From: Leucoraja ocellata
Taxonomy: Eukaryota
DNA length: 64,000 nucleotides
Direction: 5' to 3'
Assembly (NCBI GenBank): GCA_036785375.1
Contig: JAWMAR010000478.1
Span: 248,001 to 312,000 of the forward strand
This document shows, in pieces, positions 24,069 through 35,200 of this stretch; position 1 is the stretch's first letter; every line of letters starts with the position of its first letter. The translations under genes were made by a program, and so were the position numbers. The notes beneath the pieces are model-generated. The model had not been told where the DNA came from and made no database searches. It saw only the letters and a list, made by a program, of their open reading frames with translations.

Positions 24069-27000
24069 GTTTGTGGAAAATATGACTTCCCTTTTATTTG
24101 CTTTTTTTTAATGATGCATGCTGATATGAGTTTTTTTCTCCTATATGATATCTAAATGCTTTCTGAGACCAGGTCCTTCCATTTCACTCCACTGGTTTAC
24201 TTTGAGAATGTGTCTGAGGCCGGCCGGCTTCACCCTCAGCAACGCTGCATTGATGCATATGCGGCTCATGCAAGCGGTTTCCCCAGTCTGTGTACGATGC
24301 GCTTGTGACGTGGACCCTGCTCCTCCATCCACTGTGAGGTTCCCATGGTAGGCGAGGAAACCGTGTGTGTGTGTGGGACCCCGGTGAGTGTGGGCGGAAG
24401 GGAGAGCGATGTCAATGTCAGGAAATGGGGGCGAGACGCAAGGAACTGCTGATGCAGGATTACAAATCAACACAGCACTGGAGTAATTCAGTGGGTCAGG
24501 CAGCATTTGTGGAGGACATGGATAGGCCACGTTTCGAATCGGGACTCCGTGAGGAGGGACTGCTGTGAGGGACAGAGGGTAGGAGGGTCTGAGTTGTGAT
24601 GGATGAGGGTTTGAGGGGAAGTCAGGAGGGACTGAGGGATGGGGAGACTGGGTAAGGAGTGAACAGTTCCTCACACAGAACAGCGCTTCCTCATCATCCC
24701 TTCCACAACACGGCACTCCTTCACCCCCTCCAGCCACAGTGTAGCTCTCCCTCCTCACTCTCTAGTACAATGCAGCGCTCCCTGTTCACCACCCCTCCCT
24801 CAGCGCAGTTCTCCCTCCTCACCGCCCCTGGCGGAAACACATGCATTCTCACCCGATGGACAGACAGAAGACAAGAAAGAAGTCAGAGTTTTTGTTTTAG
24901 TTTAATCACAGATACAATGTGGAAACAGGAACCACGTCCCCGCCGACCAGCGATCACCTGTACATTAGTTCTATCCTACACACTAGGGACAATTTACAGT
25001 GGCCAATTAATCTGTAAACCTATCTGTCTCTTGAATATAGGAGTGCACCTGGAGGAAACACACATGGTCACAGGGAAAACGTGTCAACACAATACAGACA
25101 GCACCCATAGGCAGAATCTAACTTGGGTCCCTGGCGTTGTAAGGCAGCAACTCTACCACTGTGCCACCATGCCGTCCTTGCGATCCCCCATCGCAGATTC
25201 AAGTAAGACTGAGCCACTAGGCCAAACCCGAGACCACCAGCAATGGTCAGGTCTGGACTGCTGGAAAGAAGCCTATACAAGGCTTCAACCTCAGGCTTAT
25301 AGAGTGGCCTTGGCAAGTCTGAGGTGCTAGTGATTCTTCTGGCCCACAGACAACGACGGACTGTACCCACACACATACACACAGGCATAGACTGGCCGCC
25401 AGGATAATCAAGAGACTGCAATCATCACTTCTTCAAGCCCAAAGGTTGAGCTGCCAGGAAGAAATCTGCACTGCCAGCACTGCTTATGGCAAAGGTGGAC
25501 TGCAGAAAGAAGCCTGAGGTCGCCACAACTCCTCCTTTGAAGATCACAGGAATAAGATGTTGGGACAAGCCCGAGATCACCAGCATCTTGCCTAACGGCG
25601 CCAGAGACCCAGGTTCAATCCCGACTATAGGTGCTTGTCTGTACGGAGTTTGTACGTGTGTGTTTCCCCGAGATCTTATGTTTCCTCCCACACTCCAAAG
25701 AGGTACAGTTTGTTGGTTAATTGGCTTAGTATAAATGTAAATTGTCCCCAGTGTGTGCTGCAAAGTTTCTGCGCTGTTTCTCTAAAGTAAACTAAAAAAA
25801 ATCAATGCTGTTAATGGTCTTGCCATTAACTCTACACTCTCTCCTTGTGCCTTCATCCTCCCAAAGTGCGCACCTCACACTTGCTCAGATTAAACTCCTT
25901 CTGCCATTTCTCCGCCCATTTCTGCATCTGATTTTCATCCCAACGTATCTTCCGACAGCTTACTCACTGTCTGCAACTCCTCCACACTTGGTGTCGTCAG
26001 CAAACTCACTCAGCCACACAGTGGCGGACGGGGTCTAAAAATATTGGTTGTCAGGAGACAAAGGGGGCCCACCCACAACTACAATGCTATCATTTAATTT
26101 TCATAACGAATAAATAACATTTTCAAAAAATACATATGAAAAAAAGGGTACAATTAAAATGTTTGTGGAAAAAATGTGTATTTCTTAGTAATTACAGTGT
26201 ACATGTACTGTACATATTACTGGCAGTCGATACCAAATGTAAATACAGAATGTTATAATTGAATTCTTTATTTACTTTTTTACATTAGTAATTGGTTGAT
26301 ATTTTTAAATAGTTTACTGCACAATTTACACATTAACATAGTTCAAAAGCACAATAGAGCATTGCATGGTCCACTATATTAAGAGTAATCGTTTGTGTTC
26401 GCTGATGATTGTGCGAATCTGCCAATAATTGCTTCTGCATCCAATTCATCTAACAATTCCTTTTCAATGGATAGCAACATGTATGATTCAAAATTCTCCT
26501 CAGACAGCAAATTTCTTAACCTTGTCTTTATGATCTTTAGGTTTGAAAATGTCCTCTCACATTGGATTGAGTAACTGATAGTGTGCAGATGACTTTATAA
26601 AGTTCATAAAGGTTATCATATGCCTTGTCATGAAGTCTGTTGGATGCCAGAATTTTTAGAACACCGATGGGCAAGTGCTGCAGATTTTACAATTGTTGCA
26701 ACTGGAATCCATATTCTCACCATCATTAAGCAATAGTTTTTATACATCAAAGTTTGAAGCAAAAGAAAACAATTCCAATATTACTTGATCTTTGCTGATT
26801 TGTGGAAACAGCTTAATAATACCTTCCAATGCTTCATCTTCAAGGCCCTTCTCTGCAATATTTTTAAACTTTGCTGGGTCCAAGCAGGACAAATCTTTAT
26901 ATAACTGTTTGTATTGTAGAAAGCGTGATTCTAGTGACTGGACAATGCGATCCATTATTGGGTTAAACACATTTACCCCAAAATCAGCGAGAGAATCTGA

Positions 27001-27952
27001 GGAATTTCTTTCATCATCAATAAGCTCATCTGCCATTCTTTTCTTCTTCCTCTGCCTCTTAACTGGCAATGCTGTTTCCAATGCATCAATTTCCAATGTG
27101 TGATTTTCATCCATATTCATCTGTGAAATCCTGTCATTACACTTATTTACAAATTCCAAAGCCTTGCTGTGAACGTTATCAAATGTTCTTGTCTGTTCCT
27201 TCAAGTTTGTTGTAGCTGAATCTAGTAAACTCCATGCTGTAAAAATATCTAAACCACTTGTCTGTAGATAACTTGACAACAGGGTTGTCGTTTCAAATAT
27301 ATACAAGTAAGTAAATGCTGTCAATATGGTTTCAAACTTTAGAAGACTTTGAAGTAAAACATTTGCTTCATGTTTTGTTTTTGCATCAAACTTTTCTGAA
27401 TCTTATATCATTGATAAGCATGTCAATAGATTTACGAAAGTACTGCCAGTGGCATAATCAAAGCGTCCAAATATAGTTGTTGCTGCATTGGATTTTCCTG
27501 ACCATCTGGTCTCACCAATTAGCTTTAATCGTTTCATTTTTTCTTGTCCTAGATGTTTTCCACCAACTTCTATCCATACAGCCATTCTCTTGTATGATGC
27601 TTTCATAAAAGTTGCTATATTCTGGAGCAAATTGAAAAAAGAAACTGCAGGCACACAACATTTTGTTGTTTCAGTTATCACCAAATTCAAGACATGGGCA
27701 TAGGACCACATATGAACATGTTGATCAGCCACATCAGCAATTTTACTTTGTAATCCATTATACTGGCCATGGTAGCTTGCAGCGCCATCTGTGCTATCGG
27801 ATAAAAAAATTTGGGGGGCGATTTTAAGATGCTGTAATGTTTCAATCAATAGATCAAAAAGTCCCTGTCCTGTACCATCATTACTTGGCACAACTGAAGG
27901 TAGTCGCTCACAGATAATACCTTTAAGCACATACCGAATAATAATGCTACTG

Positions 27953-30900
27953 ATCACTGATGATGTGTTCAGGAGCATCTATTGATGTATTTGTATCAAT
28001 CACTGTGCTGGTGAAACCAGTGGCGACCAGGAATAGACTGGTTGACAACCAAGAATAGGGTGGTGACGACTGGAGAGACAGTGGACAGCTCGGAAAGACG
28101 GTAACCGGGGTGGGGCAGGTTGGCAGCCCAAACCGCATCCTCTGAGAGGAGGAGACCCAAATCACGCTACAGAAAACACATGGAAAAATACCCCCAGGGT
28201 GCCCGAAGGGGGGGGGAGGGGGGGGGGGGGGGGGGGGAGGATGAGCACCTCTATTGGATGGATCAAAGGTTCACGACTAATGGCAATGGACAACCGACTA
28301 TGAGTATCAAATGCAGATGTGGTAAGGTTTGCAAGAACAGCCGAGGCCTGAAGATTCACCAGACCCGGATGAAGTGTTTGGATGGACAGGGAGTGTCACA
28401 ACGCACAGGTATTTTACCTGGTGAGACGCAGGAGGAGCCAGGCCCGGAATCACCCCATAGAGCCCGAAGCCTCCAAGTGGCGCAACTAGTCCCTCGGAAC
28501 AGTTCTCCGGAGAAGGTTCGAGTCAGATGGCCTCAGGCCTGCAAGACGGCAGTCTGGCATCAGTTCGACGAGGACGTCGACAAGGTGCTGGAAGCAACTG
28601 CGAAGGGAGACATGGACCTAAGGCTGCGGTCGATGACAACAATCATCATCAGCCTAGCTGTGGAAAGGTTTGGAGAAGTGGAGAAGAAGCCGTCCTGAAC
28701 ACCTTTCACCATGAACCAACGAGCAACGAAGATCCACAAGATCCGGCACAAGCTGAAGTCCCTCAAGAAGCAGTATGACGAGGCCAGGGAAGAGCAACGT
28801 CCCCCCTTGGCTGAGCTGTGAACCATCCTGAGGAAGAAGCTGATGACCCTCCGTAGGGCTGAGTGGCACCGAAGACGCCGGAAGGAAAGAGCCAGGAAGC
28901 GAGCATCCTTCATAGCCAACCCCTTCGGCTTCACCAAACAACTACTCGGGCAGAAGCGCAGTGGGAGTTTGGCTTGCCCTAAGGAGGAGATCGACCGGCA
29001 CATCCAGACGACCTACAGTGACCCCATCAGGCAGCAGGAGCTGGGCCAATGCAACATCCTGATAAAACCACCTCCACCCATCAAGGAGTTTGATAGTAGA
29101 GAGTCATTCCTGAAAGAGGTCCAGGACATTGTGAAGAGAGCAAGAGCTGGCTCAGCCCGTGGCCCGAGCGGAGTCCTCTACAAGGTCTACAAGAACTGCC
29201 CCTTGTTACTGAAACTGCTGTGGAAGATCCTGAAAGGCATCTGGAGGAGAGGAAAAGTGGTGCAGCAGTGGCGATTCGCTGAAGGAGTCTGGATCCCAAA
29301 GGAGGAAGGTTCCTAAAAGATCGATCAGTTCAGAATCATCGCCTTGCTAAGTGTTGAAGGCAATATTTTCTTCAGCATAGTGGCGAGGTGGCTGACCAAC
29401 TTCCTCTCCAGCAATGGTTACATCGACAGCTCAGTGCAAAAGAGAAGCTTATCTGGAGTGCCGGGGTGTCTAGAGCACATGGGAGTGGTGTCCCAGCTCA
29501 TCAGAGAAGCCAGGGAGAACAAGGGTGACCTGACAGTGCTCTGGCTTGACCTGGCCAACGCCTACGGCTCCATCCCGCACAAGCTGATCCAGACAGTCAT
29601 GGCCAAGCATCATGTGCCGGGCCAAGTGGCAGATCTCATCCTGGACTATTACAACCAGTTCAGCATGAGAGTCTCATCAGGGTCAGTAACATCAGAGGGG
29701 CAGAGACTGGAGGTTGGGATCATCACAGGCTGTACCATCTCTGTGATCCTTTTTGCCTTGGCGATGAACATGATCGTCAAGTCTGCTGAGCCAGAGTGCC
29801 GGGGCCCCCGGACCAAGTCAGGAATGCGCCAACCACCAATCAGAGCCTTCATGGCCGAGCACTGAGTCAGTGCCAGGAGGCAGGTGGATCCTGTAGGGGT
29901 TGGAGAAACGGATTGGATGGGCAAGGATGAGGTTTAAGCCAGGACAATCAAGGTCACTGGTGCTGAAGAAGGGCAAAGTCATGGACAGGTTCCGCTTCAA
30001 CATCGAAGGGACACCATTCCCAACTGTCTCCGAAAGGCCGGTGAAGAGTCTTGGCAAGGTGTTTAACAGCAGCCTGAAGAATACAGCATCTGTCCAGGCA
30101 ACCTGTCAGGAGCTGGAGAGCTGGTTGAGAGCAGTGGATCGGTCGGGGCTTCCCGGCAAGATCAAGGAATGGATTTACCAGCATGGTATCCTGCCAAGGA
30201 TACTCTGGCCACTGCTTGTCTACGAAGTCCCAATATCCATTGTAGAGAGATTGGAGAGGAAAGTCAGCAGCTTTCTCAGAAGGTGGCTGGGATTGCCCAG
30301 GAACCTTAGCAACATCGCCTTTAACGGAAATAACACCAAGCTCCAGCTGCCCCTGCAGTCCCTGGAGGAGGAGTTCAAGGTGACTCGGGCCAGAGAGGTG
30401 ATGCTGTACAGGGACTCCAGCGACCCCAAGGTGGCTCAAGCAGGGGTGGAGGTGTAAACTGGGAGGAAGTGGAGAGCCGGCGAAGCCGTGCTGCAAGCAG
30501 AGTCTCGGATACGCCACAGAGTCCTGGTGGGAGCAGTGACTCGGGGAAGAGCAGGCCTGGGAATCTTCCCATCTCCCCAGTTTGACAAGGCCAAGGGGAA
30601 GGAGAGGCGCAGGCTGGTCCAGGAGGAAGTGAGGGCAGTGGTGGAGGAGGAGAGGTGTAGCAGAGCAGTTGGATTGAGGCAGCAGGGAGCCTGGACAAGG
30701 TGGGAGCAGGCCATGGACCGAAAATTCACATGGACTGAGCTCTGGCTGGATGAACCACAGCGCATCAAGTTCCTGGACCAGGCAGTGTATGATGTCCTGC
30801 CCAGCCCATCGAACCTCTTCATCTGGGGCAAAGCGGAATCTCCAGATTGCCCGCAATGCTCAGGCAAGGGGACGTTGGAACACATCCCGAGCTGTTGCCC

Positions 30901-31662
30901 AAAGGCTCTTGGGCAGGGCCGCTACACATGGCGTCACGACCAGGTTCTCAAACCCATTGCAGAAGCCATCAGCATGGGAATCAGCAGCTGCAGACGAGAA
31001 CGCCCCACCACCCAGATGATCACCTTCGCGAAGGCCGGAGTGCAGCTGCCAAGAACCACAGCAGCCAGCCAGGAATCCGTCAGGAATCCTGGCGACTGCG
31101 CAGGGCTGGCAGCTTTCCGTAGACCTGGTGAAACAGCTGAAGTTCCCACAGCACATTGCCATGACCACCCTGAGGCCAGATATCCTCCTGGTCTCAGAGG
31201 CGACCAAAAACATCGTCTTGTTGGACCTGACAGTGCCGTGGGAGGACCGTCTGGAGGAGGCCCACGAGAAGAAGATGGCCAAATATGAAGAACTGGTCAT
31301 GGACTGCCGCAAGCAGGGCTGGAAGGCAAGGTGTATGCCCATCGAGGTTGGCTGCAGAGGTTTTGCATGGCAATTGCTCTACAAAGCTTTGAGTGCACTG
31401 GGCATAAACAGAGTGGCAAGGAGAAGGGCCATCAAGAACACCACAGAGGCAGCGGAGAAGGCCTCGAGATGGCTCTGGATCAGGAGAGGAAGACAATGGG
31501 GAGGAGCGAATGCCTCCTGAACACAAGTCGTGGTCTGATCAACCACGGCTGGGTCGCCTGGGTGAGGGTGTCTGATGTTGAAAGACCTGAAACATCCAAT
31601 GACCCCAGGTTACATCACTGAATATGTGTTCAGGAGCATCTATCGATGTATTTGTATCAATC
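27953..31662 (+). mobile_element. Near full-length RLE-type non-LTR retrotransposon (Hero/R2-like clade), ORF about 28180-31520 with stops and frameshifts
   Basis: N-terminal zinc finger CRCGKVC..H; RT motifs DLANAYGS and GCTIS; CCHC knuckle CPQC..H..C; RHD; RPD..LTVPWE..K..KY restriction-like endonuclease. The catalytic FMDD region is deleted. Confidence 0.9.
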
Positions 31663-32254
31663 GATGGATGAATTTTATCTTGTGTTGAATCAACCAATAG
31701 AATAATATTGTGCTTGAGAAACTTCATGACTAATTCTTTCTTGTATCATATTCTTCATAATTTTGATTAACATGTTTATAGTAGTTTTACTCAGGTATGT
31801 AACAAGTCCACCACGGCCTTTACTTTGAGCCTTTCCTTGTTGCTCTAATCATTTGATTCTTTGTTTAGACTTGTTTTGCACTGCAGAAACATGAGCTGCC
31901 ATAATGGGGTCATATTTTGCCATCAACTACACTGTAGTTAAAAAATTGCCTTGATTCTGAACCTCATTATCTAGAATGTAGGCCGATTCATTTCTGTGAC
32001 CTCGAAAAGGAAGTGCTTGCTTGCCTAACATCTTCATGATGTCTATAATCCTCATGACAATACTTCTCTGCTTCAATACTTCTTCTTTCCTTTTAATTAG
32101 TGATGCTGCTGCAAAAAAATTATCTAAGGTGGCATCATTAACCACATTGATAGATTGCGGAGTATTTCTGACATGTTGTTGTCGATTTATGTAAATGAGA
32201 TCATTACCATGCATAACTAGTAATTTACGTTTGAATTCTCATGTAGTTGAACTT

Positions 32255-35200
32255 AGAAACATAGAAAATGGGTGCAAGAGGCCATGCGGCCCTTCGAGCC
32301 AGCACCGCTATTCATTGTGATCATGGCTAATCGTCCCCTATCAATCACCCGTGCCTGCCTTCTCCCCATATTCCTTGACTCCACTAGCCCCTAGAGCTCT
32401 ATCTAACTCTCTCTTAAATCCATCCAGTGATTTGGCCTCCACTGCCCTCTGTGGCAGGGAATTCCATAAATTCACAACTCTTGGAGAAAAAGTTTTTCTC
32501 ACCTCAGTCTTAAATGGCCGCCCCTTTATTCTAAGACTGTGCCCCTGGTTCTGGACTAGCCCAACATTGGGAACATTTTTCCTGCATTTAACTTGTCCAG
32601 TCCTTTTATAATTTTATATGTTTCTATAAGATCCCCCTCAACCTTCTAAACTCCAGTTTAATACAAGCCTAGTCTTTTCAATCTTTTCTCATATGACAGT
32701 CCCGCCATCCCAGGGATCAATCTCGTGAACCTACGCTGCACTGCCTCAATCACAAGGATGTCCTTCCTCAAATTAGGAGACCAAAACTGTACACAATACT
32801 CCAGATGTGGTCTCACCAGAGCCCTATACAACTGCAGAAGAACTTCTCTACTCCTATACTGAAATCCTCTTGTTATGAAGGCCAATATTCCATTAGCTTT
32901 CTTCACTGCCTGCTGTACCTGCACGCCAACTTTCAGTGACTGGTGTACAAGGACACCCAGGTCTCGCTACACCCCCCCCTTACCTAACCTAACCCCATTG
33001 AGATAATAATCTGCCCCCTTATTTTTGCTGCCGAAGTGGATAACCTCACATTTATCTATATTATACTGCATGCCACGCATCTGCCCACTCACTCAACCTG
33101 TGCAGGTCACCCTGCAACCTCCTAACATCCTTTTCACTGTTCACACTGCCACCCAGCTTTGTGTCATCCGCAAACTTGCTAGTGTTGCTCCTAATTCCCT
33201 CTTCCAAATCGTTAATATATATGGTAAACAGTTGCAGCCCCAACACCGAGCCTTGCGGCACTCCACTCACCACTGCCTGCCATTCTGAATAGGACCCGTT
33301 CACTCCTACTCTTTGCTTCCGGTCTGCCAACCAATTTTCTGTCCATGTCAACACCCTACCCCCAATACCATGTGCTCTAATTTTAGTCACCAGTCTCCCG
33401 AGTGGGACCTTATCAAAGGCTTTCTGAAAGTCTAGATACACTACATCCACTGGCACCCCTTCAGCCATTTTACTTGACACATCCTCAGAAAATTCCAGAA
33501 GATTAGTCAAGCATGATTTCCCTATCATAAATCCATGTTGACTTGGACTAATCCTTTTACTGCTACCCAAATGCCCCATTAGGCACAAGGCATTGGGGGT
33601 TCAGTATTGATGTGGATAGAGAACTGGCTGGCAAACAGGAAGCAAAGAGTAGGAGTAAACGGGTCCTTTTCACAATGGCAGGCAGTGACTAGTGGGGTAC
33701 CGCAAGGCTCAGTGCTGGCACCCCAGCTATTTACAATATATATTAATGATCTGGATGAGGGAATTGAAGGCAATATCTCCAAGTTTGCGGATGACACTAA
33801 GTTGGGGGGCAGTGTTAGCTGTGAGGAGGATGCTAGGAGACTGCAAGATGACTTGGATAGGCTGGGTGAGTGGGCAAATGTTTGGCAGATGCAGTATAAT
33901 GTGGATAAATGTGAGGTTATCCATTTTGGTGGCAAAAACGGGAAAGCAGACTATTATCTAAATGGTGGCCGATTGGGAAAGGGGTAGATGCAGCGAGACC
34001 TGGGTGTCATGGTACACCAGTCATTGAAGCTAGTTATGCAGGTGCAGCAGGCAGTAAAGAAAGCGAATGGTATGTTAGCTTTCATTGCAAAAGGATTTGA
34101 GTATAGGAGCAGGGAGGTTCTACTGCAGTTGTACAGGGTCTTGGTGAGACCACACCTGTAGTGTTGCGTACAGTTTTGGTCTCCAAATCTGAGGAAGGAC
34201 ATTATTGCCATAGAGGGAGTGCAGAGACGGTTCACCAGACTGATTCCTGGGATGTCAGGACTGTCTTATGAAGAAAGACTGGATAGACTTGGTTTATACT
34301 CTCTAGAATTTAGGAGATTGAGAGGGGATCTTATAGAAACTTACAAAATTCTTAAGGGGTTGGACAGGCTAGATGCAGGAAGATTTTTCCCGATGTTAGG
34401 GAAGTCCAGGACAAGGGGTCACAGCTTAAGGATAAGGGGGAAATCCTTTAAAACCGAGATGAGAAGAACTTGGACAAAGTCCATTGGACAAAGTCAGCAT
34501 GGATTTACGAAAGGTAAATCATGTCTGACGAATCTTATAGAATTTTTCGAGGATGTAACTAGTAACGTGGATAGTGGAGAACCAGTGGATGTGGTGTATC
34601 TGGACTTCCAGAAGGCTTTCGACAAGGTCCCACATAAGAGATTAGTATACAAACTTAAAGCACATGGCATTGGGGGTTCAGTATTGATGTGGATAGAGAA
34701 CTGGCTGGCAAACAGGAAGCAAAGAGTAGGAGTAAACGGGTCCTTTTCACAATGGCAGGCAGTGACTAGTGGGGTACCGAAAGGCTCAGTACTGGGACCC
34801 CAGCTATTTACAATATATATTAATGATCTGGATGAGGGAATTGAAGGCAATATCTCCAAGTTTGCGGATGACACTAAGCTGGGGGGCAGTGTTAGGTGTG
34901 AGGAGGATGCTAGGAGACTGCAAGGTGACTTGGATAGGCTGGGTGAGTGGGCAAATGTTTGGCAGATGCAGTTTAATGTGGATAAATGTGAGGTTATTCA
35001 TTTTGGTGGCAAAAACGGGAAAGCAGATTATTATCTAAACGGTGGCCGATTGGGAAAGGGGGAGATGCAGCGAGACCTGGGTGTCATGGTACACCAGTCA
35101 TTGAAGGTAGGCATGCAGGTGCAGCAGGCAGTAAAGAAAGCGAATGGTATGTTGGCTTTCATAGCAAGAGGATTTGAGTATAGGAGCAGGGAGGTTCTAC

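Follow-up and report, generated by a model that had tools for sequence, protein, structure and literature searches.

A retrotransposon in a 64,000-nt stretch of the Leucoraja ocellata genome (contig JAWMAR010000478.1, positions 248,001 to 312,000; hereafter the window) carries complementary segments in its two untranslated regions and a repeat at its two ends, raising the question of whether its RNA ends fold together and how the repeat arises. Its single ORF, interrupted in the window copy by stops and frameshifts, holds an N-terminal zinc finger, a reverse transcriptase (RT) domain (PF00078, E 3.9e-11), a CCHC knuckle and a PD-(D/E)xK restriction-like endonuclease (RLE), as expected of RLE-type non-LTR elements; the CCHC and PD..E..K motifs were read off the translations, and the latter, without a Pfam match, is what we take to be the endonuclease. 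The RT piece is 67-82% identical to the 120 relatives listed and 73% identical to the Tetraodon polyprotein Q7T1J8, presumably Zebulon / HEROTn of Tetraodon. A quick tree that included no labelled Repbase Hero references joins P0003, a close homologue, to Q7T1J8 and a protein of Branchiostoma; the element is tentatively classed as Hero-like. The family has thousands of copies in its own genome, and when diverged endonucleases served as queries there, the matches apparently all belonged to one young family, so that no covariation could be obtained from that source. No relatives were found in the viral contigs scanned, and eight loci that have tRNA-like boxes gave no complete tRNA in ARAGORN.

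The sequence-only reading proposed that the two UTRs pair through three nested helices, co-folding the ends with the ORF looped out, as in self-splicing introns. All six segments are present as exact complements in nested order (GGCGACC, 28022-28028, with GGTCGCC, 31552-31558; TGGTTGA, 28039-28045, with TCAACCA, 31539-31545; ACGACT, 28066-28071, with AGTCGT, 31526-31531), as is the accompanying hairpin CTGG-TGAAA-CCAG (28008-28020). Six exact helices of at least 6 nt exist between the 5' UTR (28002-28180) and the 3' UTR (31520-31662), and, of 2000 dinucleotide-shuffled controls, whose nested chains averaged 11.7 bp, 49 equalled the 20 bp of the real sequence, a modest excess over chance for a score and regions picked after the fact. 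As conserved structure, the three helices did not hold up: in nine diverged relatives aligned over the 3'-5' junction, pairs are broken without compensation, the GGCGACC/GGTCGCC helix being lost in all nine (0-4 of 7 pairs kept), ACGACT/AGTCGT keeping 2-4 of 6 and TGGTTGA/TCAACCA 1-6 of 7 with an uncompensated change at its central pair. Among 11 relatives, a 3' UTR showed no preference for pairing with the 5' UTR of its own element (p 0.54 and 0.25 in permutation tests against non-cognate combinations). The ensemble pairing probability of all three helices was 0.0 in two constructs because their segments are occupied by local helices (P2, stem II, P3 and the 5' hairpins; Table 1), and the minimum-energy fold of the whole element contained 0 of the 20 panhandle pairs. 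An Rfam scan of 27800-31800 returned no ribozyme or intron, only nine chance-level matches, and there is no sign of the conserved core and covarying long-range end helices of group I and II introns. The further suggestion, that a ribozyme or circularisation module is tied to the terminal repeat, gained support through a different structure, a putative split hammerhead in the 3' UTR, and not through the helices originally named.

Region 31514-31636 of the 3' UTR is predicted to adopt a conserved fold in which four separate strands together supply the core letters of a hammerhead, giving a split layout (Table 1). The core follows the order site-GAAA-CUGANGA (SGC), but CUGANGA does not run on into the stem II strand, which begins at G10.1 and is connected by way of a four-way junction containing two helices: the nucleotides 3' of A9 pair in P1, and stem II is supplied from an upstream strand via the P1/P2 junction. 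In five sequences inspected by eye, the segment 3' of CUGANGA and the one 5' of GAAA do not form a classical stem II with each other. Most family copies read CUGAUGA; the window copy is a decayed insertion, with a mutated core and only 49 nt of upstream copy, and its ribozyme, in which two core letters have decayed, is predicted to be inactive, G8 having been lost.

Table 1. Coordinates of the element and of its predicted RNA features (window positions).
Feature	Position	Strand	Details
5'-truncated upstream copy of the element's 3' end ('terminal repeat')	27953..28001	+	94% identical to 31614-31662
About five small 5' UTR hairpins	28008..28101	+	Purine-rich loops, UGAC-like spacers; includes the panhandle's 5' segments
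Single ORF of RLE-type non-LTR retrotransposon	28180..31520	+	ORF pieces, motifs
P1 5' strand	31514..31525	+	Pairs with 31625-31636 immediately 3' of CUGANGA; four-way junction arm; two-sided changes in 10/10 pairs
P2 hairpin, palindromic loop UGAUCA	31526..31550	+	Second four-way junction arm; contains AGTCGT, TCAACCA; two-sided changes in 6/6 tested pairs; predicted pairing probability 0.98
Detached stem II strand, starting with G10.1	31551..31555	+	Pairs with 31584-31588; overlaps GGTCGCC; two-sided changes in 4/5 pairs
P3 (31557-62/31604-09), tandem GA loop, stem III	31557..31609	+	P3 joins stem II to stem I at their distal ends
Kink-turn-like tandem GA loop	31563-65 / 31598-603	+	GA on both sides in 17/22 distinct motifs
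Stem III	31566-71 / 31592-97	+	98% paired; two-sided changes in 4/5 pairs
Predicted cleavage site U16.1-C17	31571..31573	+	Cut between 31572 and 31573
Stem I (31573-78/31612-17) and GAAA block (31589-92)	31573..31617	+	Stem I: two-sided changes in 5/5 pairs; 98.6% of cells paired
CUGANGA block	31618..31624	+	CUGAAUA in the window copy (G8 lost)
Short tail up to fixed reverse-transcription start (TCAA-T-C), without poly(A)	31637..31662	+	

Conservation of the fold was assessed in 80 related metagenome loci, 30 of which matched a strict descriptor, as against 0/80 reverse-complement and 0/80 reversed sequences; with one mismatch and any N17 permitted, 33/80 matched, and 0/80 in each of three controls. 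A covariance model yielded 23 further matches in 35 other loci, all on the sense strand, four of them cut at contig ends. When 30 rows were aligned with MAFFT in structure-blind fashion, pairing held in 84.4% of cells, compared with 57.6% after shuffling and 36-46% in slid controls; two-sided changes occurred in 32 of 36 pairs, and all six helices covary (values for P1, P2 and stems I to III are given in Table 1). P3, which is absent from the descriptor, reaches at least 5 bp in 21 of 22 distinct motifs versus 164 of 462 cross pairs. A scan for helix geometry without any sequence constraint landed on CUGANGA/GAAA in 17 of the 22 distinct motifs, the others comprising one placement elsewhere and four without a match, and gave two weak reverse-complement matches lacking the core. 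The hammerhead sequence rules set out below hold over a set of proteins that share 34-58% identity with the query segment, and the core is complete at 28 of 47 3' loci in the element's own genome. The descriptor picked its rows by their core, which makes core invariance among them partly circular; several matches found by the covariance model only (L173, L157, L174, L161, L183) carry core changes, which may represent decay. One family shows a U-U opposition or an extra base at the junction, and another has an extra C before GAAA, without an in-register stem II.

The variation agrees with the rules known for hammerheads. Over the 33 descriptor matches, N17 is C in 13, A in 13, U in 7 and never G, although G was permitted; N7 is free (U15/C12/A6); and the 10.1-11.1 pair, which the descriptor does not demand, is G-C in 31 and G-U in two. 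The U16.1-A15.1 pair is present in 30/30 aligned rows, having been required by the descriptor that chose them. The core letters stand beside stems I, II and III in the family, not in the window copy, and the SGC block order, found in all descriptor matches, is accompanied by a helix tying stems I and II. Two features depart from the canonical hammerhead: stem II is not contiguous with A9, where at most one to two inserted nucleotides would be expected, and the block C of type SGC (stem I strand, CUGANGA, stem II strand) is split. Two whole helices between A9 and G10.1 are without tested precedent in the literature searched. Readings as a group I intron, group II domain V, HDV-like or hairpin ribozyme, judged by eye against consensus features, were dropped once the relatives showed the hammerhead layout.

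The 49-nt terminal repeat noted at the outset is real; in its upstream copy CUGAUGA is intact and the P1 3' strand is included, with the stem I 3' strand present in part. Partial tandem arrays were reportedly seen in Zebulon / HEROTn of Tetraodon by Bouneau et al. in 2003; no ribozyme or mechanism for that tandem structure is known to us from that work. Here, an upstream copy is fused to the 5' UTR in 27 of 28 independent own-genome insertions, with lengths in other insertions from 16 to about 2820 nt; 16 of the copies span the predicted cut and 15 are long enough for a whole upstream ribozyme. This is the partial-tandem arrangement, with the ribozyme inside the repeat, of retroelements that use circular RNA. 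All 27 joins lack added bases, one having a 4-nt deletion, and the exception among the 28 (L193) starts exactly at 28002. The same 3'-to-5' fusion was seen by eye in 13 metagenome contigs, of which repeat contigs may be collapsed assemblies, and the descriptor matches at 7 of 30 junction loci. Among contigs of four sequencing runs, which cannot reveal ends, strand or circles, a contig of one run, guessed to be RNA, crosses the 3'-5' join, and those of two others have no cover there. Insertions have diverse 3' flanks and end at a fixed, tail-less point (31659-31662 in 45 of the 46 listed), 90 nt beyond the predicted cut, retaining the whole fold, and no upstream copy (0/27) starts within 15 nt of the cut; the templates were therefore either uncut or rejoined, two states that sequence cannot distinguish. 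Ten of the 27 upstream copies begin within 31604-31627 (p of at most 0.003 when compared with three models of smooth decay), a pile-up that a simple circle does not predict.

Taken as a whole, the scheme in which the 3' fold self-cleaves tandem transcripts and the unit-length RNA is ligated into a circle and copied by RT for more than one round from an internal start has, in our estimate, an even chance of being correct; cleavage by the fold is likely in its own right, and self- or host-mediated ligation with rolling-circle copying could equally well fail or hold. Head-to-tail transcripts would self-cleave after C31572, the unit-length RNA would be ligated, and RT would prime internally on the circle. 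Stem II would stack on the A9-G12 pair and P1 on P2 in the four-way junction, with P3 taking the role of the stem I-II contact. Were the RNA cut, the ends of the unit-length molecule would pair through P1, II, P3 and III with the ORF looped out. The 5' UTR hairpin array, predicted to be an RT-binding or promoter element, is separated, in the fused form, by 4-8 nt from the start site upstream of it and would position the RT. Of ten aligned elements, all ten retain 4-5 of the 5 pairs of hairpin 2, nine retain 4/4 of hairpin 4 and seven retain 3-4 of 4 of hairpin 3, hairpin 1 aligning poorly, and such arrays are also visible in the 5' UTRs of relatives.

The same structural evidence would serve a linear route, which we regard as unlikely, in which the hammerhead cuts to trim upstream sequence without a circle, RT starts internally on linear tandem RNA, cleavage perhaps requires a protein or a kissing-loop dimer, and upstream copies are rebuilt by read-through or template jumps. 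Palindromic P2 loops (TGATCA or GACGTC), present in 11 of 22 distinct motifs, are compatible with dimer gating, and the ten starts, which lie 30-55 nt past the predicted cut, could be linear cut templates shortened by a few dozen nucleotides during integration. R2 template jumps usually add bases, unlike the 27 joins described above; moreover, no upstream copy starts at the cut, and the copies would shrink each generation unless rebuilt. Internal initiation on unprocessed RNA, as this route would need, has been shown for the Penelope-like element Poseidon (PMC11167929).

Less probable again is a hammerhead-derived scaffold that does not cut and serves for protein recognition, like the structured 3' UTR of R2, with template jumps, for which 28002 and 31662 would be the defined ends of the RNA, giving rise to the tandem copies. 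It would account for the holding of the strand after CUGANGA in P1 instead of stem II, for insertions that keep the entire fold and never end at the cut, and for the L193 insertion; the supposed RNA 5' end is, however, the start of only that one insertion in 28. A separate strand nevertheless provides stem II, with covarying pairs and G10.1-C/U11.1 in 33/33, and the avoidance of G at N17 with free variation of N7 follows known hammerhead cleavage rules, kept across the diverged proteins. The three UTR-UTR helices, as an intron-like structure, are largely refuted and very improbable, even though the middle helix retains 5-6 of 7 pairs in five of nine relatives and in L106 chained 5-mers still amount to 16 bp with the 5' UTR of the same element; a family-specific switch is possible.

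The split four-strand layout proposed here was not found in the literature searched and, if it cleaves, would be a new hammerhead architecture, missed by current descriptors because these assume CUGANGA and stem II to be contiguous (PMC10085705). Delivery of stem II via a four-way junction would, if true, break the three-block rule of hammerheads. The Rfam scan was also blank on the window copy, whose core has decayed. A cleaving fold would further constitute a non-circularly permuted ribozyme at high copy in animal genomes, suggest how the partial-tandem, tail-less insertions of the Hero-like LINE clade come about and tie RLE retrotransposons to the circular-RNA strategy of Penelope and retrozymes. 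The broader proposal, that Hero-like LINEs are autonomous non-LTR elements replicating via circular RNA from their own four-strand hammerhead, which would occur across a deep clade and at thousands of copies in a genome of vertebrate size, is put forward tentatively, at slightly less than even chances. A circular template primed internally would also be of practical interest, since RLE elements are being engineered as tools to insert genes.

Among known systems, the closest in fold are the SGC hammerheads (HRIMA-1 and variants; Eckert et al. 2023, PMC10085705), which cut in vitro and share the block order, a short stem I-II linker, a helix joining distal stems I and II, and multiple pseudoknots. 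Their stem II strand directly follows CUGANGA, whereas here it lies about 70 nt upstream, a P1/P2 four-way junction sits at A9/G10.1, the core is assembled from four strands and a kink-turn-like loop extends stem III; insertions of more than 1-2 nt between A9 and G10.1 are described there as unknown. SGC motifs are almost all limited to metatranscriptomes, with none in genomes of known organisms save one GCS candidate (PMC10085705), as opposed to thousands of genomic retrotransposon copies here. Penelope-like elements likewise place a ribozyme in the partial-tandem terminal repeat (pseudo-LTR) of an autonomous retroelement, with a proposed circular template, more-than-unit reverse transcription and an internal RT start (PMC4209133; PMC11167929). 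Natural hammerheads, those of Penelope-like elements included, tolerate one additional nucleotide at 9/10.1, with G10.1-C11.1 conserved (PMC4209133). The ribozymes of Penelope-like elements are minimal type I motifs with a palindromic helix III and a GIY-YIG endonuclease (PMC4209133; PMC11167929), in contrast to the pseudoknotted split core, RT and RLE found here; in one such element, cleavage needed protein and was dispensable for insertion in vitro (PMC11167929). Retrozymes also propagate via circular RNA and bear hammerheads, which are classical, but are short and non-autonomous (PMC4918200, PMC7229834), whereas in the present element both RT and endonuclease are self-encoded. R2 (PMC13580325, PMC7650587) is an RLE-type non-LTR element whose co-transcript is processed by a small ribozyme; that ribozyme is HDV-like and 5'-terminal, and R2 targets rDNA, whereas the element described here combines a predicted hammerhead-type fold in the 3' UTR with diverse 3' flanks and partial-tandem copies.

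The 3' UTRs of the Hero-like element and its relatives share a fold with a hammerhead core, in which the cleavage site, GAAA and CUGANGA follow one another in that order. The strand 3' of CUGANGA pairs in P1, not stem II, which is a separate, covarying helix. Because no linkers part P1, P2 and stem II, the three helices place a four-way junction between A9 and G10.1 (hammerhead numbering). Of 47 other 3' loci in the same genome, 28 have the complete fold; the CUGANGA block of the window copy reads CUGAAUA, and this copy is therefore predicted to be dead. The loop of P2 (window 31535-31541, with equivalents in relatives) is palindromic: 11 of the 22 distinct motifs have TGATCA or GACGTC there. 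This suggests kissing-loop dimerisation.

Positions of the element, its 3' UTR fold and neighbouring features (window coordinates unless a fetched locus, L, is named).
Feature	Position	Strand	Basis or remark
RLE-type non-LTR retrotransposon	28002-31662	plus	
ORF	28180-31520		broken
P1	31514-25 / 31625-36		
P2	31526-50		
Stem II	31551-55 / 31584-88		
P3	31557-62 / 31604-09		
Stem III	31566-71 / 31592-97		
N17	31572		
Stem I	31573-78 / 31612-17		
CUGANGA block	31618-24		
Transposase-like frame broken by the element	26740-27978 and 31662-32238	minus	flanks
RT-like fragments, another LINE type	32341-34265	minus	translated frames; just downstream of the element
tRNA-like A/B boxes	L119:1888-1941, L125:2454-2506, L144:898-958, L169:1625-1688		pattern match, 4/8 loci

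A metagenome scan using an alignment of C-terminal fragments as query confirmed 149 loci, the best 80 of which were used. A strict descriptor (five helices, zero linkers) matched 30 of these 80 and none on reverse-complemented or reversed sequence; with one mismatch and any N17 allowed it matched 33, against 0/80 in each of three controls. Many of the 47 missed loci are contigs ending near the stop codon; a relaxed search recovered the core plus stems I and III in 13 of them, and a covariance model gave 23 matches among the 35 that were searched. The 33 descriptor matches reduce to 22 distinct motifs, whose cognate strands are 97-100% paired, a figure partly imposed by the descriptor, versus 43-76% for non-cognate strands. 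Thirty rows, made up of 28 descriptor matches out of the 33 and two own-genome rows, were aligned blind to structure; two-sided changes were found at 32 of 36 pairs, and slid controls all dropped to 36-46% paired. When up to 500 nt surrounding each motif were scanned on geometry alone, the hammerhead core was recovered for 17 of the 22 motifs. The fold occurs across a clade of 75 rows (SH-aLRT 99). None was found in the five-row outgroup, in which two contigs have no 3' sequence and one was left out of the covariance-model search.

Variants were also observed among the fetched loci. L122, L131, L133 and L177 form a family that retains an intact core and both stem I and stem III, but has one additional C preceding GAAA, a greatly extended P2 region and a stem II out of register. 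The subfamily of L114, L120, L135 and L157 carries a longer conserved tail (~60-70 nt extra) downstream of P1, which possibly holds further helices. In one branch of relatives, tRNA-like A and B boxes follow the stop codon and precede the fold; ARAGORN reported no whole tRNA in eight such loci, and the boxes are possibly a Pol III promoter lent by an upstream partial copy to the next unit.

Three properties absent from the descriptor's demands fit known hammerhead rules and thus argue for a ribozyme: N17 is G in none of the 33 matches; positions 10.1 and 11.1 pair as G-C or G-U in all 33, although G10.1 is unlinked from A9; and the distal ends of stems I and II are joined by P3 in 21 of 22 motifs. 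Judged from sequence, the fold probably self-cleaves.

The RT piece of the element shares 73% identity with the Tetraodon polyprotein Q7T1J8, which we take to be Zebulon/HEROTn; the Hero assignment is tentative and draws on a quick tree. A first-look search of its own genome with the endonuclease end gave ~4,600 candidates, versus 53 exact matches to a 23-nt word of the 5' UTR. When the insertion was deleted in silico with one shared ATC, the transposase-like frame became open across the site; it is presumably hAT-like by its motif, and a Pfam search returned no match for it. About 25 loci (own-genome contigs C478, C1051, C1626, C1278, C428, C2500 and others) carry this insertion with the same flanks, some of them ~85 kb apart within one contig, and the window is thus part of a large amplified segment. 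The downstream RT-like fragments are presumably CR1/L2-like.

The 49-nt terminal repeat noticed in the sequence-only reading is real, and is a truncated upstream copy of the element's own 3' end. This end directly precedes the 5' UTR in 28 of 30 loci fetched with a 5' UTR word. Forty-nine loci collapsed to 28 independent insertions (by hand, L204/L214 were split from L060 and L206/L207 merged), 27 of which are preceded by 16 to ~2820 nt of upstream copy and one of which begins exactly at 28002. The 27 joins carry no added bases, one having a 4-nt deletion. The 3' ends lack a tail and their position is fixed: of the 46 listed, 45 lie at 31659-31662, and one of 47 loci gave no match. In the window family, and in five relatives that allowed a free end and a join to be compared by eye, the first hairpin of the 5' UTR lies 4-8 nt downstream of the free 3' end, and direct 3'-to-5' fusion was seen by eye in 13 metagenome contigs, which may be collapsed tandem-repeat assemblies.

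It had been proposed that the two UTRs pair with each other as a panhandle looping out the ORF. The six segments named are present as exact complements in nested order, and their 20 bp were equalled in 49 of 2000 dinucleotide shuffles of both UTRs, which is a modest excess, given that the score was selected post hoc. In 11 relatives with both ends, cognate 3' and 5' segments had no pairing advantage over non-cognate combinations (p = 0.54 for duplex energy and 0.25 for the helix chain with the window left out; 0.45 and 0.058 when it was included). An alignment across the 3'-5' join retained only 0-4/7, 1-6/7 and 2-4/6 pairs in nine relatives, and the partition-function probability of the three helices was 0.0 in both constructs, where local P2 and hairpin 2 reached 0.98-0.99. 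With no cognate preference, pairs lost in relatives and zero probability, the panhandle as described was rejected; a family-specific role for its helices is conceivable in the strict sense.

From the fold, the fixed 3' start and the seamless partial tandems, a circular-RNA cycle can be proposed. A transcript running through the upstream copy and the full unit would be cut at both ribozymes; the ends of the cut unit would re-pair via P1, II, P3 and III, with the ORF looped out and both termini in the active site, and ligation would yield a circle on which RT would prime at an internal site 90 nt beyond the seam and continue for more than one round. Upstream sequence long enough for the whole ribozyme fold is retained in 15 of 28 insertions, so that the cycle would be self-sustaining. 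Against this, no upstream copy (0/27) starts near the predicted cut and 16 cross it, and 10 of 27 start within the 24-nt stretch 31604-31627, at the 3' strands of stem I and P3; this pile-up may reflect stalling of the RT at stem I, or linear RNA that lost its end after cutting. Cleavage was also dispensable in vitro for a Penelope-like element, according to the portion of PMC11167929 consulted. On the sequence evidence, we give the full model an even chance.

Neither a hammerhead in Hero or Zebulon elements nor one split at A9/G10.1 by a four-way junction was found in full-text searches of the open literature, with subscription journals, Repbase notes and supplements being places that could hold one; the sections consulted of PMC3088659, PMC13580325, PMC7650587 and PMC2684134 mention neither kind. 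In the excerpts consulted, related features are described: a sheared A9-G12 pair adjoining G10.1-C11.1 and a pseudoknot substituting for helix II (PMC11300833), and, for Penelope hammerheads, a conserved extra nucleotide at 9/10.1, with circles proposed as the cause of the tandem form of these elements (PMC4209133). Hammerheads with the block order cleavage site, GAAA, CUGANGA (SGC) cleave, and the consulted part of PMC10085705 takes block C, CUGANGA with its stem strands, as unsplittable. The element's fold would work alike, but falls outside the SGC class because that definition, as given there, assumes an unsplit block C, which is split here.
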